The translations under genes were made by a program, and so were the position numbers. A stretch of 14,597 nt of DNA from Candidatus Thorarchaeota archaeon. Lineage in GTDB: Archaea > Asgardarchaeota > Thorarchaeia > Thorarchaeales > Thorarchaeaceae. The stretch is from positions 1 to 14,597 of the forward strand of contig SHMX01000014.1 of assembly GCA_008080745.1 (NCBI GenBank). The letters run 5' to 3'. Shown piece by piece: positions 9,492 through 14,597 of this stretch. The notes below the pieces were generated by a model, which saw only the letters and a list, made by a program, of their open reading frames with translations, made no database searches and was not told where the DNA came from. How positions within the stretch are numbered: the stretch's first letter is position 1; every line of letters starts with the position of its first letter.

Positions 9492-10213
9492 GCTAGCACC
9501 TCAACCAAGGTAACGAGGGCGCGGATGACGCGCTCGATGCGCTCCCGATCGCCGTGAAACGGCGTCGTCAGGTGCGCATCCTTGAACCGCTTCACGATCC
9601 GGCACGCCTCGTGGAGCTCCACCTGGGCAGCGGGAACCCCGAGATCCTGGGAGACGAAGCGCGTGATCGTGTCCTGACTCAGCCCGCCGGTGAAGCGGGG
9701 ATCGTTGACCACCAGCCGGTCCGCCGGACCCATCTCCCGGCCGAAACCATAGGCCTCGAAGGTCTGGATGATGAGATCCTCCTGCCCGGGACAGCTCTCT
9801 CCATCCATCGTGCCCAGCGCGATGGCGAACTCTCGCTCGTCACGGACACCGTGGAGGTCGAGCACGAAACGAATCCCATACCCCTCTACGACGGACCGGA
9901 TCAGATCCCGATAGGGCGCCCGGGGATCGGCGTTGGGATCGGTGCGAGACCTGCGGCGAGCGACGACGGCGTGGGCACCCGCCAGCTCGGCCACCAGGGG
10001 GGCCATCCCGGCGGTGTACTCGTCCTCCTCCTTCTTCTCCCCATCGCGCATATGGGTGGCGCCGTGGGGCGCGGAGACGAGGACGGGCACGCTGCCGGAA
10101 ACGTGGAGGAACTCGGGCTCATCCCCCCTTGCCAGCCGGCGATAGCGGACGTCGGCCTCGAGGCCGACGAGGCTCTCGATCAAGCTGGACGCGTGGGGAA
10201 TCCTTCTCTCCAT
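9488..10213 (-). CDS. N-formylglutamate amidohydrolase-like protein (Zn-dependent exopeptidase fold), 241 aa, intact copy
   Basis: VLVSAPHG, VLDLHG and QVEL motifs. The start is reassigned to MERRIPH (10213) on the basis of the promoter position. Confidence 0.7.
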   Translation of the reverse strand: MERRIPHASSLIESLVGLEADVRYRRLARGDEPEFLHVSGSVPVLVSAPHGATHMRDGEKKEEDEYTAGMAPLVAELAGAHAVVARRRSRTDPNADPRAPYRDLIRSVVEGYGIRFVLDLHGVRDEREFAIALGTMDGESCPGQEDLIIQTFEAYGFGREMGPADRLVVNDPRFTGGLSQDTITRFVSQDLGVPAAQVELHEACRIVKRFKDAHLTTPFHGDRERIERVIRALVTLVEVLA

Positions 10214-10496: not shown

Positions 10497-11642
10497 CTAG
10501 TGTTTGCGCTCCGTCACCGACCTACGGAGGGTCGGGACGTAGTTCACGCCCAGGCTGAAGAAGAGGATGCCGAAGGAAAAGGCGGCAATGACGATGGCGA
10601 ACTCCATCCAGTGGGGGACATAGGTGGCGCCGGCCGGCGCCTGCAGCGCGAACCAGGCGATCGAGGACCGGTTGAGCGCCAGTCCGATCAGCGTGTAGAT
10701 GGCGCCGAACAGCAAGCAGGTCTTGCTCCTCCTGATGCGCGTGCCGAAGATGACCAGCGGCATAATAATGCCGAGGACCATCTCTGCCACCCAGATCACG
10801 CTCAACCAGCCGCTGCTGAAGGCCAGCCCCAGCTCTCCCGCGACCACCAGATCACCGACCTTTAGCACGAGATAGATGGCCTGGACGACGGCCACGATGG
10901 TGGCCAGACGAGTGAGAAGCTGCATAGGCGCGGGCTTTCCCATGGCCCGCCAGGTGACCAGACCCAGCAGGATGGCTACCGTTAGCCCGCTGAACACAGC
11001 GGACGTGAAGAAGAGGATGGGCAAGATCGGGGTCCACCAGAGGGGGTGAAGCTTATGAGCGAGTACCAGAAAGAGCGCGCCCAGCGAGCCCTGGTGGACG
11101 CAGGAGAGCAGGATGCCGAGGCCGGCGATCAGCGGGATCCCCCGGTTGATCAGCCGAATCGGCCACCAATCCCGATCGGCGAATACGACACCCACCAGCT
11201 CCAGCACCAACACGCCGAAGTAGATGGCGACGGAGATGCTGACCTCGAACATGAAGGAGTGGAGGTTCCAGCGCCACGGCATCAGCACACTGTAGAAGTG
11301 GTCCCAGCGGCCCAGATCCATCAGCAGGACCAGCACCACCAGCAGGTATCCCAGAAAGCCGGCCAGGAGGGCTAGATGAGCCACACCGTGGTATTCCTTG
11401 CGGTTGAAGATGTGCAGCACGGCGGCCAGGGTGAAAGCCCCGGCCGAGAGCGGCACGGTGAAGACGTCGAAGGCGATCCACAACCCCCAGGGATAGCCGC
11501 TGTTCAGGTTCGTGGTTGCACCCAGGCCTGTTGCCAGCCGGATGACGCCCACGATCAGCCCAAGGACGACCAGGGCCCCCAAGATCCAGTACGCGACGGG
11601 GATACGAGCCCGCTCTCTGATTCTGGCGATGATCGTTGCCAT
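10497..11642 (-). CDS. HybB/NrfD-family integral membrane subunit (quinone-interacting), 381 aa
   Basis: YPWGLWIAFDV, IFNRKEYH, DLGRW, SFMFEV, HQGSLGAL and LHPLW match HybB/HmcC-type NrfD proteins; about 10 hydrophobic helices. The ATG at 11642 has GGAGG 9 nt upstream (alternative start at 11672). Confidence 0.9.
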   Translation of the reverse strand: MATIIARIRERARIPVAYWILGALVVLGLIVGVIRLATGLGATTNLNSGYPWGLWIAFDVFTVPLSAGAFTLAAVLHIFNRKEYHGVAHLALLAGFLGYLLVVLVLLMDLGRWDHFYSVLMPWRWNLHSFMFEVSISVAIYFGVLVLELVGVVFADRDWWPIRLINRGIPLIAGLGILLSCVHQGSLGALFLVLAHKLHPLWWTPILPILFFTSAVFSGLTVAILLGLVTWRAMGKPAPMQLLTRLATIVAVVQAIYLVLKVGDLVVAGELGLAFSSGWLSVIWVAEMVLGIIMPLVIFGTRIRRSKTCLLFGAIYTLIGLALNRSSIAWFALQAPAGATYVPHWMEFAIVIAAFSFGILFFSLGVNYVPTLRRSVTERKH

Positions 11643-11646
11643 AGTC

Positions 11647-12537
11647 CTATGCCTCCCCTCTTCCTTCGACATCCGGTTCGTTCACTTCGTCCCCCATCCG
11701 GCGCTTGCTAGCCCAGTAGATCCCCCCCAGGACGGCGGCCACACCACCCAACATACTCGGCGTGCCGATCATGGCCACCTTGTCGCTGAGCGCCGGTACG
11801 GGTTCGGAACCAAGAACGGGTAGATCGAACTGCTCGCAGCGGACCCCAGAGATGTAGAGCCAAGAGGTGCCTCCGGCCTCCGTCTCGCCATAGATGTGGT
11901 CGACGTACTCACCGGGGTTCTCCTCAATGCGGGAGCGCGCCTCCTCCAGCAGCTCCTGCCGCGGGCCGAATTTGAGCGCGCCCGTCGGGCACGCCTCGGC
12001 GCAGGCCGGCTGAAGCCCCTCCGCCTGCCGGTCAGCGCAGAACGTGCACTTCGCGATCGTCGGTAGGGTCTCGTTCCAGTCGATCTGGGGCACGCTGAAA
12101 GGACAGCTCACCATGCAGTAGCGGCACCCGATGCAGCGTTCGGCATGGTAGATCACCGGCCCCTCTTCGGTCTTCTCCAGCGCCTGCACCGGACAGACTG
12201 AGACACAGGCGGGGTGGAGGCAGTGCATACACTGATACTTGCAGAAGGTCTCAGTGGCGCAGGTCTGATACTTCTTGACCACCGTGAGGTTGTCAGCCGT
12301 CAGTTCAGTGGGAGGTTCAGCACTTGAGGGCAAGCCATTCCACTCCCTGCAGGCTTCCTCACAGGCCAGACATCCGATGCACTTGGTCGCATCGTAGAGC
12401 ATGGCCGCACCATTCTCAGCGTCCACCTCATCCGACGCACAGGCTGGATCCGGTCGAAAAAGAAGCGCTCCTACACTCAAGCCCGCGAGCTTGAGGATCG
12501 TTCTCCGACTCACCAAGTCTTGTTTCTGCCTATTCAC
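11647..12537 (-). CDS. HybA-like Tat-exported 4x[4Fe-4S] electron-transfer subunit with a C-terminal TM helix (296 aa)
   Basis: GTG start at 12537 with an AAGGAG Shine-Dalgarno overlapping the upstream TAA. Twin-arginine motif SRRTILK. Cys motifs CIGCLACEEAC, CMHCLHPACVSVC, CIGCRYCMVSC and CTFC...PACAEAC. YGETEAGGTSWLY; terminal TM helix followed by KRR. Confidence 0.92.
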   Translation of the reverse strand: MNRQKQDLVSRRTILKLAGLSVGALLFRPDPACASDEVDAENGAAMLYDATKCIGCLACEEACREWNGLPSSAEPPTELTADNLTVVKKYQTCATETFCKYQCMHCLHPACVSVCPVQALEKTEEGPVIYHAERCIGCRYCMVSCPFSVPQIDWNETLPTIAKCTFCADRQAEGLQPACAEACPTGALKFGPRQELLEEARSRIEENPGEYVDHIYGETEAGGTSWLYISGVRCEQFDLPVLGSEPVPALSDKVAMIGTPSMLGGVAAVLGGIYWASKRRMGDEVNEPDVEGRGEA

Positions 12538-12553: not shown

Positions 12554-14596
12554 TTACTCCCTGTAGTCCTTCCGGCGGATGATGATCGGTGTGGCGGTGA
12601 CGCCGGCGAGTGCGATTCCGATCCCAAGCACTAGAGGCCAGCCCGGTCCAGCTGGAGGCGGTGCCGCGTCCGCAGCCTGTGGGCAGTCGGGCAAGGCGGG
12701 TATCTCTTCGACGATGACACGGGCGTTGGCCTCCATCTCATCCGGCGCCACGTCGTCAGCGGTCAGGAAGAGGTCCTCATTGCAGTGGCAACATTCACAG
12801 GTCTGGTTCTGCGGCGTCTCCCGCTGGATGTTGTGGGGGGTCGCGTACTTCCAGGTCGGAACGTTGTCGAACTGAGGTATGAGATCGTCGCCGTAGAAGG
12901 CGAAGGTGTCCGGCGCCACCGGGACGTGGCGGACCAGGACGTATTCCCAGGGCCGATCCTCGCTCTGCATCGGATTGCGACCGATCTTGAACAACATCTG
13001 GCTCTCTTCGGTCTGGTAGTAGGACAAGCCCTGATCGTCCAACCCGACGTGGCAGTCATAGCAGTTCTTGTACGGCCCGGAGACGTGGCACACCTGGCAG
13101 GCGACGGTTTCGGCGTGGACCTCGTGCTCGACGATCTCACTCTCCTCTGAGATCACACCCGCGTGACAGTCGAGGCAGCTCACATCCGGCTCGCCGGCGT
13201 AGCGATGAGCCGGCTCGGAGCCATCGCCGTGGTATTCCGTCACATCGTGGCACTGGAAGCAGGACATACCCTCCTCCAGCCAGTGGACGCTGCCCTCGAC
13301 GCCCTCGTTCTTGCCCTGATACTCGTTGGCCACGCGGGCGCCGTGGCAGGCCATGCACGTATCGCGAATCGAAGCGACCGATTTGACACGATGGCCGGCG
13401 ATCAAGCCGCCAAAGGTGAAGCTGGGCCGGCTGATGTGACACTGGCCGCAGGTCGTGTGACAGCTGTCGCAGTGATTTCCGAAGGCTTCCTCCATCACCG
13501 GATCGCTGAAATCTACGCCTCGGGCCGAGAGCACGGTGTAGTAGCCGGTCAGGTTCTGGTGGAGGCTGGTCGATGCGTGCCGGGTAGCGTCGACGTGGCA
13601 GATGCCGCAGACTCGCTCCGACGACTCCAGCGGATCCCGCACCACGCCCTCGTGAGCGGCCTCCATATCATCTTCGTCTCCAACCCCGCCGTGGCACCCG
13701 ATGCAGTTCTGCGTATTGTGGACCGAGAGCAGGAACCCGTCCTCGATGAAGACCTTCTCCCATGCCTCCAACGGAGGCAATTCTCCCCCTCAGCCCTCGC
13801 CGGAGGTCTGCTCCGACACCACCTCCTCTTCTACCGCCAGATCCTCCAGCTGCACCCGATCGGTGTGGCAGTTGATACAGCTGCCGGAACCGTCCAGCAT
13901 CGACGGCATGTCCGCCGCCGGTTCGGGGGTGGATTCTGGGGCCGGCGCCGGTTCCCCACCGGCACCCGCCAACGGGGTCGGGAGCTCGTAGGGACCGCCG
14001 GGCTCGTGGGCCTCGGTGTCGATGGTGTAGTCCCCCGCGTGGGTCTCCGGGTTGAAGCGCTTGGCGTAGACCTCCGGATCCGTCGTCCACGACGACATCC
14101 CGAACAGGAGCGAGACAGCGTCATAGCCCAGCATGTTCAGCGCCGCCGTCGCCTGGCCCGCCGTCTGGCCCGTGTAGCAGACCAGCACCACGTCCCGGTC
14201 CGACGGGATCGCCGCCAGGCTCTCCGCGCTGAACAGCTCCGTCACGCTCACGTTGACCGCGCCGGGAATGTGGCCCGCCGCGTAGTCCTCCGCCGAGCGG
14301 AGGCTGATGATCGTCGGGTCGTTCTCCGGGTCGCCATCGTTCAGGTTCTCGTAGAGATCCGCGGCCTGGATCGTCCGCGGCCCCTCACTGAAGTAAGCCG
14401 CCGCCGCCCCGGCCACATCCGCCGCCAGGGGGCTGGGAACATCGTAGGACCCCTCAAGCTCGTGGGCCTCGGTGTCGATGGTGTAGTCCCCCGCGTGGGT
14501 CTCCGGGTTGAAGCGCTTGGCGTAGACCTCGGGGTCGGTGGTCCACGACGACATCCCGAACAGGAGCGAGACAGCGTCATAGCCCAGCATGTTCAG
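12554..14596 (-). CDS. 5'-partial selenoprotein: tandem rhodanese domains, CxxCH, Sec (TGA 13790-13792), 10 x CxxCH multiheme cytochrome c, C-terminal TM anchor
   Basis: ORFs 13790..14590 and 12554..13780 are in the same frame, separated by TGA plus 3 codons (GGE). A SECIS-like hairpin follows. The rhodanese domain has GHIPGAVN, active-site CYTGQTA (Cys codon 14177-14179) and LLFGMSSW. There are 11 CxxCH motifs in total. The frame is open to the window edge. Confidence 0.88.
13763..13779 (-). promoter_or_regulatory. Bacterial SECIS element
   Basis: The mRNA reads UGA-GGGGGAGAAU-UGCCUCC-GUU-GGAGGCA: a 17-nt stem-loop (7-bp perfect stem) spanning +11..+27 after the UGA, with the apical loop starting G-U at +18. 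Confidence 0.85.
13790..13792 (-). other. In-frame UGA read as selenocysteine (motif SGEG-U-GGE)
   Basis: Coding-like sequence continues in frame on both sides, the context is Gly-rich, and a SECIS-like hairpin lies downstream. Confidence 0.85.
14002..14141. repeat. Intragenic tandem repeat of the rhodanese module, inner copy (period 456 bp = 152 aa)
   Basis: 136/140 identical to 14458..14597; all 4 differences are synonymous. Confidence 0.95.
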
Positions 14597-14597
14597 C
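14458..14597. repeat. Intragenic tandem repeat of the rhodanese module, outer copy (continues beyond the window)
   Basis: Encodes LNMLGYDAVSLLFGMSSWTTDPEVYAKRFNPETHAGDYTIDTEAHE, identical to the inner copy. Confidence 0.95.

Follow-up and report, generated by a model that had tools for sequence, protein, structure and literature searches.

A candidate selenocysteine-containing fusion of rhodaneses and a multiheme cytochrome on a high-GC contig of a Thorarchaeota assembly

The 14,597-nucleotide contig SHMX01000014.1, deposited in the Candidatus Thorarchaeota archaeon assembly GCA_008080745.1 and here called the window, raises a question of gene definition at one of its ends. On the minus strand, an open reading frame (ORF) with rhodanese repeats and a single heme-binding CxxCH motif ends in a TGA at 13790-13792, and shortly after it an ORF with ten such motifs continues in the same frame. 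Is this TGA the end of a gene, or is it decoded as selenocysteine (Sec) in the middle of one? An initial annotation, made from the letters of the window, favored the second answer and proposed one selenoprotein with at least two rhodanese domains, one heme, Sec, ten hemes and a transmembrane (TM) anchor. Comparison with relatives leads us to the same answer: the TGA and a hairpin downstream of it, a candidate selenocysteine insertion sequence (SECIS), are conserved in all 80 loci that we collected, and it is very probable that the UGA is recoded as Sec and that a single polypeptide results. We regard, with almost the same confidence, the stretch from 14596 to 12554 as the 3' 2 kb of one gene, whose Sec-decoded and exported rhodanese-cytochrome would belong to a quinol-linked module.

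Decoding of the in-frame TGA

When TGA is read as Sec, the frame running from 14596 to 12554 on the minus strand yields 680 residues and holds the TGA at 13790-13792 as its sole internal stop. The junction reads ...SEQTSGEG-U-GGELPPLEAWEKV..., with the Sec being residue U269 of the partial protein. To a gene caller the same stretch is an ORF at 13790-14596, open at the contig end, and a separate ORF of 408 amino acids from a TTG at 13780 to the TAA at 12554, with a gap of 9 nt (GGG GGA GAA) between the TGA and the TTG. The TGA, the gap and the in-frame ten-CxxCH ORF are all where the initial annotation had placed them, on the minus strand. One CxxCH motif precedes the Sec codon and ten follow it, to a total of 11. 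The 408-amino acid ORF (12554-13780) has no signal peptide, and this downstream stretch is identical to the database entry P0002. As no fewer than four other genes in the window end at TGA in the ordinary way, the standard code applies and no change of code need be invoked.

A word-indexed search returned 809 relatives, and a scan of one genome per species gave 80 loci. Almost all of the 809 proteins are 400-500 amino acids long and start with (L/M)PPLEAWEKV or LEAWEKV; in other words, they are truncated downstream halves, which bears out the earlier expectation that standard annotation would split the gene. The few names that they carry are Chloroflexi or Anaerolineae. Many rhodanese-less downstream halves (e.g. 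P0007, P0010 and P0012) bear the JGI label 'thiosulfate/3-mercaptopyruvate sulfurtransferase', a name presumably inherited from relatives with the fusion and misleading for such halves. Four longer relatives span the junction and open with signal peptides, and three of these (P0099, P0119 and P0121) have Cys at the position of the U of the window protein. The 80 loci come from Anaerolineae, Ardenticatenales, Caldilineae, Thermoflexus (locus L055, from a metagenome-assembled genome (MAG) of Thermoflexus sp.), Dehalococcoidia and some Acidimicrobiia. Every one of them has a conserved open frame upstream of the ten-heme part and one stop at the same aligned codon. This stop is TGA in 81 of 81 sequences, i.e. 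the 80 loci and the window, and never TAA or TAG, with the frame and the motifs on both flanks being kept down to about 44% identity and the consensus at the recoding site being [S/E]GEG-U-[G/A]G.

A profile search against 1.84 billion cluster representatives gave 1337 matches at E <= 0.001, 207 of them at E <= 1e-30. Among the best 150 of the 1337, 106 stop short of the junction, being downstream halves or fragments, and 44 span it. Cys occupies the Sec column in 14 of these 44 junction-spanning clusters, mostly as C-G-G, and the remaining ones have a gap or another residue there, which in one case is Trp. The Cys forms are single uninterrupted proteins. Thus, both signs for which the initial annotation had suggested looking at the GEG-x-GG position, namely homologs with Cys and a conserved TGA with its hairpin, are present in the family. 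The cluster with Trp is typified by P0127, a full-length protein of 455 amino acids with GPGEG-W-AGE at the site, one base off TGA; it may represent a natural Sec-to-Trp replacement or a base-call difference.

The distribution of export signals bears directly on the question of one gene or two. Loci with a complete upstream part nearly all open with a signal peptide, mostly with a lipobox (...LAAC or ...VAAGC), and a signal peptide on the ten-heme part is found in none of the 80 loci. Hemes of the c-type are attached only after export, and a ten-heme half that lacks an export signal therefore argues against two separate genes. In the alternative, the TGA would be a true stop between a rhodanese-monoheme gene and a separate ten-heme cytochrome gene starting at TTG 13780. 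This is how gene callers read the locus, and nearly all database entries consist of the downstream half alone; but it leaves the ten-heme half without an export signal in 80 of 80 loci, and it has to contend with a stop that is always TGA and always in frame, with Cys forms that are uninterrupted, and with a hairpin that, as detailed below, is conserved at the level of RNA. We consider it extremely improbable.

The hairpin UGCCUCC-GUU-GGAGGCA (13763-13779, minus strand), with a perfect stem of 7 bp and a loop of 3 nt, occupies nucleotides +11 to +27 after the UGA, or +14 to +30 if the U of the UGA is counted as 1. The local fold has this hairpin as its centroid structure, and both its form and its position are those given in the initial annotation. 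Its 17 nt lie inside the coding sequence and specify the codons L-P-P-L-E-A. The SECIS of Escherichia coli fdhF has a minimal upper stem-loop of 17 nt located 11 nt after the UGA. The hairpin of the window agrees with it in having 17 nt (7 bp and 3 nt) at +11 within the coding sequence and a G and a U in the loop, and differs from it in sequence and in that the common form of the present family has no bulged U. A scan of Rfam around the UGA gave chance-level matches only, and no SECIS family was among them.

Pairing in the 7-bp stem amounts to 93% over 41 distinct sequences, as against 44-57% when its 3' arm is slid by 1-3 nt, and the covariation score of 0.141 is reached in none of 500 column shuffles (0.054 +/- 0.012). 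The pair 15-29 varies between G-C, A-U, C-G and G-U, and the pair 20-24 changes from C-G to A-U in one sequence. Synonymous sites within the hairpin are likewise frozen: in a test of codon choice that counts only the sequences with the majority amino acid at a given column, one Pro is CCT in 78 of 79 and the other is CCG in 76 of 76, Leu is TTG in 68 of 74, Glu is GAG in 78 of 81 and Ala is GCA in 49 of 54. The entropy of synonymous codons is 0-0.57 bits at codons +5 to +9, while invariant Gly and Val codons outside the hairpin show 1.1-1.9 bits. In the Cys forms the PPLE motif is relaxed to DPMD, APVD or PPLQ, as would be expected if a part of its conservation is driven by the RNA. At three loci (L039:6097-6138, L042:164-205 and L047:6181-6222) a shifted hairpin is seen, CCCCGC-UGGAA-GCG-U-GGG, with a bulged U and a loop of 5 nt; here the SECIS is remodelled and the UGA kept.

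The proposed decoding would proceed by the bacterial SelB pathway, directed by the 17-nt SECIS 11 nt downstream of the UGA. The initial annotation had suggested a search for Sec machinery in the genome itself, and such genes are indeed present, albeit of archaeal type, on low-GC contigs and without relevance to the window. The assembly (G000) has 19 contigs, among which C1-C13 and C16 have 39-43% GC, the window contig C14 has 64.5%, and C15 and C17-C19 have 62-65%. Within about 4 kb of contig C5 (L020, G000:C5:19000-30000) there are genes for aSelB (469 amino acids), SepSecS (TIGR03531, 471 bits), a 'Sel_Asgard' protein and tRNA-Sec. A SelD match at G000:C1:338860-339666 contains one in-frame TGA, and this low-GC SelD is probably itself a selenoprotein. 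Bacterial SelA was not found in G000, and there are no matches to Sec genes on its high-GC contigs. As C14 stands at 64.5% GC as against about 41% for the contigs with the Sec genes, it comes from a different organism: C14 is a high-GC bacterial contaminant in an archaeal MAG of about 41% GC, and the source of the gene is probably a high-GC Chloroflexota (Anaerolineae-like) bacterium. The small high-GC contigs of G000 are probably bacterial (Chloroflexota) contamination as a whole. We therefore rejected the archaeal, Asgard-type machinery of G000 as support for the window gene. In contaminated bins a check for Sec machinery in the genome can mislead, with that of G000 belonging to another organism. 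A further match in G000, to an EF-Tu/SelB-like GTPase (L006, G000:C2:310031-310831; 122 bits), has an open frame of 452 amino acids with one in-frame TGA, which would fit a selenoprotein, a pseudogene or a pair of genes. The closest bacterial relatives of the window gene encode full-length SelB and SelA above the curated cut-offs in five of five genomes, and tRNA-Sec (70-76 bits) in four of the five.

These data also bear on the notion that the TGA arose through a mistake in sequencing or assembly, marks a recent pseudogene, or is a site of selenium-free readthrough by a near-cognate Trp, Cys or Arg tRNA. The window is, after all, a contig from a metagenome bin that ends in a collapsed repeat, and the P0127 cluster has Trp (TGG) at the aligned position. 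Set against this are the same TGA in 81 of 81 independent assemblies, a SelB-type hairpin that covaries and stands at the canonical spacing, the Sec machinery in the genomes of relatives, and an alternation of Sec and Cys that is typical of selenoproteins, which together make an explanation of this kind very improbable.

Architecture of the predicted protein

The part of the gene upstream of the Sec codon is dominated by rhodanese repeats. The contig end cuts off the 5' end of the gene and leaves the C-terminal part of one repeat at 14456..14596 (minus strand, as are all features of this gene), recognized from its translation and by comparison of the repeats, and a complete repeat unit of 152 amino acids follows at 14000..14455 (PF00581, 55.5 bits against a cut-off of 22.2). 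The Pfam Rhodanese match covers residues 78-171 (14084-14365) and includes the active-site loop CYTGQTA with the catalytic Cys (residues 140-146; 14159-14179). In this region a stretch of 176 nt recurs at a spacing of 456 nt with 90-92% identity. The near-identity of these repeats (456-nt period, about 91% identity) explains why the contig of the window ends inside them, and a blastn search with the rhodanese region against the whole assembly recovered the window itself only, and not the missing 5' end. Near-identical rhodanese repeats of this kind break or collapse short-read assemblies.

A Pro/Ala-rich linker (13880..13999) connects the rhodanese array to the cytochrome part, which begins with heme-binding motif 1, CINCH (13865..13879), upstream of the Sec codon; its C16, C19 and H20 are invariant in alignment A2. 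The Sec codon in the motif GEG-U-GG is followed by the ten-heme core with its ten CxxCH motifs and the C-terminal anchor (12557..13789), a part that on its own is annotated as 'cytochrome c3 family'. A C-terminal TM helix, WPLVLGIGIALAGVTATPIII (12578..12640), with RRK after it, is also found in close relatives, and the TAA at 12554..12556 is the true stop of the fused gene.

The relatives show how this architecture varies. The common minimal form starts with a lipoprotein signal and a Pro/Thr stalk, which are followed by heme 1, the Sec and 9-12 hemes, as in L074 with 431 amino acids. The Pro/Thr-rich stalk after the lipoprotein signal of such non-fused relatives stands at the place of the Pro/Ala linker of the window, and members of the clade of the window have their rhodanese domains in between signal and stalk. 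In a full-length orthologue, L021, the signal peptide is followed by four rhodaneses, heme 1, the Sec (U698), the ten other hemes and finally a TM helix; this is the predicted architecture, including the N-terminal signal peptide that the initial annotation had placed upstream of the window, and only the fused reading gives the ten-heme cytochrome of L021 a signal peptide. The count of fused rhodaneses varies among close relatives, with one in L028 (4590-5339) and four in L021 (4165-6255), and the upstream part of L023 (3229-6255), at 1009 amino acids, has room for about six. Judged from these orthologues, the complete product of the window gene would be exported and anchored in the membrane: a signal peptide encoded beyond the contig end would be followed by tandem rhodaneses and a Pro-rich linker, after which heme 1 would precede a Gly-rich GEG-U-GG loop that contains the Sec, and ten further c-type hemes would lead to the TM helix at the C-terminus.

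Alignment A2 contains 11 invariant CxxCH hemes, with the Sec lying between motifs 1 and 2, and 10 invariant His residues outside these motifs; the only column with an invariant Cys outside CxxCH is that of the Sec. As 11 hemes face 10 such His residues and no extra invariant Cys, one heme may be unusual, and it may possibly lie near the Sec or be ligated by it. A search of Protein Data Bank (PDB) sequences matched the rhodanese part only and gave no match to the cytochrome part. Weak matches to DmsE-type decahemes and cytochrome c7 came from other comparisons, with protein family models.

Partner genes and a possible role

Downstream of the cytochrome gene, and also on the minus strand, lies a gene for an HmcB/HybA-like four-cluster Fe-S protein (11647..12537; Fer4_11) with a twin-arginine translocation (Tat) signal, SRRTILK, and a C-terminal TM helix. 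Its likely start is a GTG 16 nt past the stop of the cytochrome, with an AGGAG ahead of it. The protein scores 265.7 bits with HmcB (NF045715), as against an equivalog cut-off of 420, and 237.3 bits with HybA, which is also below the cut-off. The next gene (10497..11672, minus strand) codes for a HybB/HmcC-like membrane subunit of the NrfD family (PF03916, 91.8 bits), which is presumed to provide the quinol/quinone site; its scores with the HybB-type model (251.8 bits) and with HmcC (NF045714; 202.3 vs 550) are both under the cut-offs. In L021-L035, the 15 closest relatives, the Fe-S gene directly follows the cytochrome, as it does in about 12 further loci, mostly from Dehalococcoidia. The most constant partner is the rhodanese, which is fused in the clade of the window; in about 52 further loci a gene for a two-domain rhodanese immediately precedes the cytochrome in the same orientation, and a rhodanese is lacking in only five loci that have more than 1 kb of upstream flank. 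The fusion is a Rosetta-stone link of the cytochrome to sulfur (or selenium) transfer chemistry. Elsewhere in the window, a direct repeat of at least 300 nt (508-807 and 9722-10021; 99% identical, 9214 nt apart) brackets most of the contig, and could be an assembly artefact or reflect a circular or duplicated element.

These associations incline us, on balance, toward a sulfur or selenium redox role of the cytochrome together with the rhodanese. By this proposal, which is built on gene order and on analogy with the Sud/PsrABC and ExtH/MccSep systems compared below, the cytochrome, the co-transcribed Tat Fe-S protein and the NrfD-like protein would together constitute a respiratory module, linked to quinol and situated at the membrane's outer face. 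Cysteines of the rhodaneses would take up sulfane sulfur, whether of polysulfide, thiosulfate or S0, or perhaps selenium species instead, as a persulfide and pass the sulfur to the Sec, giving a selenenyl-sulfide adduct. Electrons might then flow from NrfD via the Fe-S protein and the heme chain to the Se-S adduct, with release of sulfide. The reductive direction, i.e. a polysulfide or sulfane reductase, is the more doubtful part of this proposal. As for the family as a whole, we only tentatively propose that it is a widespread group of Sec-containing 11-heme cytochromes of Chloroflexota and some Actinomycetota, which arose independently of MccSep and catalyses molybdenum-free, quinol-linked reduction of sulfane sulfur or selenium.

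Two other roles are compatible with a genuine Sec. The protein could conduct electrons in extracellular electron transfer, with iron minerals as one conceivable acceptor, or could act as a redox sensor, with the Sec serving as an axial heme ligand and the rhodaneses being accessory. The eleven hemes, the membrane anchor and the weak resemblance to DmsE-type decahemes and cytochrome c7 would suit such a role, as would the 10 invariant non-motif His residues for 11 hemes, which leave one heme without an assured His ligand. This has to be set against the fact that catalytic-Cys rhodaneses are fused or adjacent almost everywhere, which points to a sulfur or selenium substrate, and against the cost of Sec, a residue that is usually catalytic. 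Moreover, the only characterised Sec multiheme cytochrome, MccSep of Geobacter sulfurreducens, is an enzyme (PMC13510729). A conduit or sensor role thus appears unlikely to us.

The remaining role keeps both the Sec and the sulfur chemistry but reverses the flow, making the protein a thiosulfate, sulfide or polysulfide dehydrogenase from whose hemes electrons reach the quinone pool through the Fe-S and NrfD-like proteins. Complexes with HmcB/HmcC-like partners are generally thought to bring periplasmic electrons to the membrane, and rhodaneses use thiosulfate; the Sud/Psr pairing of Wolinella, on the other hand, is reductive. Cytochromes of the TsdA type oxidise thiosulfate at a His/Cys-ligated heme, whereas MccSep, in being the sole characterised Sec multiheme enzyme, is a reductase (PMC13510729). 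We judge this oxidative version, too, to be improbable, if by no means far-fetched.

Several points weigh against the overall reading of a Sec-decoded, exported rhodanese-cytochrome of a quinol-linked module. HmcABC-type modules can run in either direction, and the Fe-S partner is found nearby in only about half of the loci at the thresholds used. The functional part is purely an argument by analogy, there being no sequence relation to MccSep and no invariant Cys for a His/Cys-ligated heme. The case for selenium incorporation in the cytochrome family is one of sequence comparison. The folding energy of the hairpin as a single sequence is unremarkable (z = -1.0, with 29 of 200 shuffles folding as well), and hence only the comparative analysis carries weight for it; of the folding check suggested in the initial annotation, the centroid structure and the comparative conservation held up, and the single-sequence energy did not. 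An AlphaFold2 model of residues 225-680, from a 44-row alignment, has a mean pLDDT of 62.6 and a pTM of 0.54, with the Sec loop below 50, and is too poor to place the geometry of the Sec relative to the hemes; a Foldseek comparison of this model with the PDB found nothing at E <= 0.001. The start of the fused gene, together with its signal peptide, lies outside the window, and the organism itself is represented by a contig of 14.6 kb and perhaps four other small high-GC contigs.

If the sulfur-reducing proposal is true, it would point to a second, convergent heme-plus-selenium route of sulfur respiration in abundant uncultured bacteria of sediments and the subsurface. The rhodanese fusion in particular offers a testable hypothesis of sulfur respiration without molybdopterin. 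As long as the gene is annotated in two pieces, metabolic reconstructions of Chloroflexota overlook a redox enzyme that is exported, assign it to the wrong place and underestimate the use of selenium.

Comparison with known systems

A 2026 review of prokaryotic selenoprotein families includes ExtKL, the GSU2204 family and the octaheme TIGR04315 family, and none that is like the family of the window. A full-text literature search found no Sec multiheme cytochrome of Chloroflexota, and no model for the window cytochrome family was found in NCBIfam release 20.

The known system nearest in kind is MccSep/ExtKL of Geobacter sulfurreducens (GSU2937-2936; NCBIfam NF040886), a Sec-dependent pentaheme polysulfide/selenite reductase (PMC13510729), which in 2026 gave the first proof that Sec multiheme cytochromes can be enzymes. 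Its gene lies within the extHIJKL... cluster (PMC5877670), and ExtH is called a rhodanese-like lipoprotein in the title of a work cited in PMC13510729. The likenesses are several: both are exported multiheme cytochromes c with one Sec from an in-frame UGA and a SECIS-like hairpin, both are annotated as two ORFs and have Cys-type homologues, and both have a rhodanese partner, which is encoded in the same ext cluster in the case of MccSep and is fused or encoded directly upstream here. The initial annotation had raised kinship to ExtKL as a possibility. Apart from the shared association with rhodaneses this did not hold, for there is no match to NF040886 at E <= 0.01 with P0001 or P0099, and none at E <= 10 with P0001:225-680 or P0123. 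The window family has 11 hemes instead of five, and its Sec follows heme 1 in GEG-U-GG, whereas that of MccSep comes after all hemes, in an Ig-like domain with a D-G-U-P loop. The invariant extra Cys for a His/Cys-ligated heme is, judging by sequence, absent here. Furthermore, the present proteins are anchored by membrane helix or lipid and come from Chloroflexota and Actinomycetota, whereas MccSep is a soluble periplasmic protein of Desulfobacterota and Nitrospirota. We therefore rejected membership in MccSep/ExtKL, given the absence of an NF040886 match and the differences in heme number and Sec position. If our reading is true, this would be a second and unrelated family of Sec multiheme cytochromes after MccSep, with far more hemes.

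The second comparison concerns the module rather than the cytochrome. Sud and PsrABC of Wolinella succinogenes constitute a polysulfide reductase system in which, as in the window, a sulfur carrier of the rhodanese type is exported and goes with a membrane complex that includes a four-cluster Fe-S subunit and a quinol subunit of the NrfD type. They differ in that the window has no catalytic molybdopterin subunit like PsrA; the Sec-containing 11-heme cytochrome occupies that position and is covalently joined to the rhodanese. Finally, the HmcABC and HybAB systems have the same gene order of a multiheme cytochrome, a Tat Fe-S protein that ends in a TM helix and an NrfD-family protein. Unlike in those systems, the Fe-S and membrane proteins of the window score under the equivalog cut-offs of HmcB and HmcC, and the cytochrome is not HmcA-like and carries a Sec and rhodaneses.

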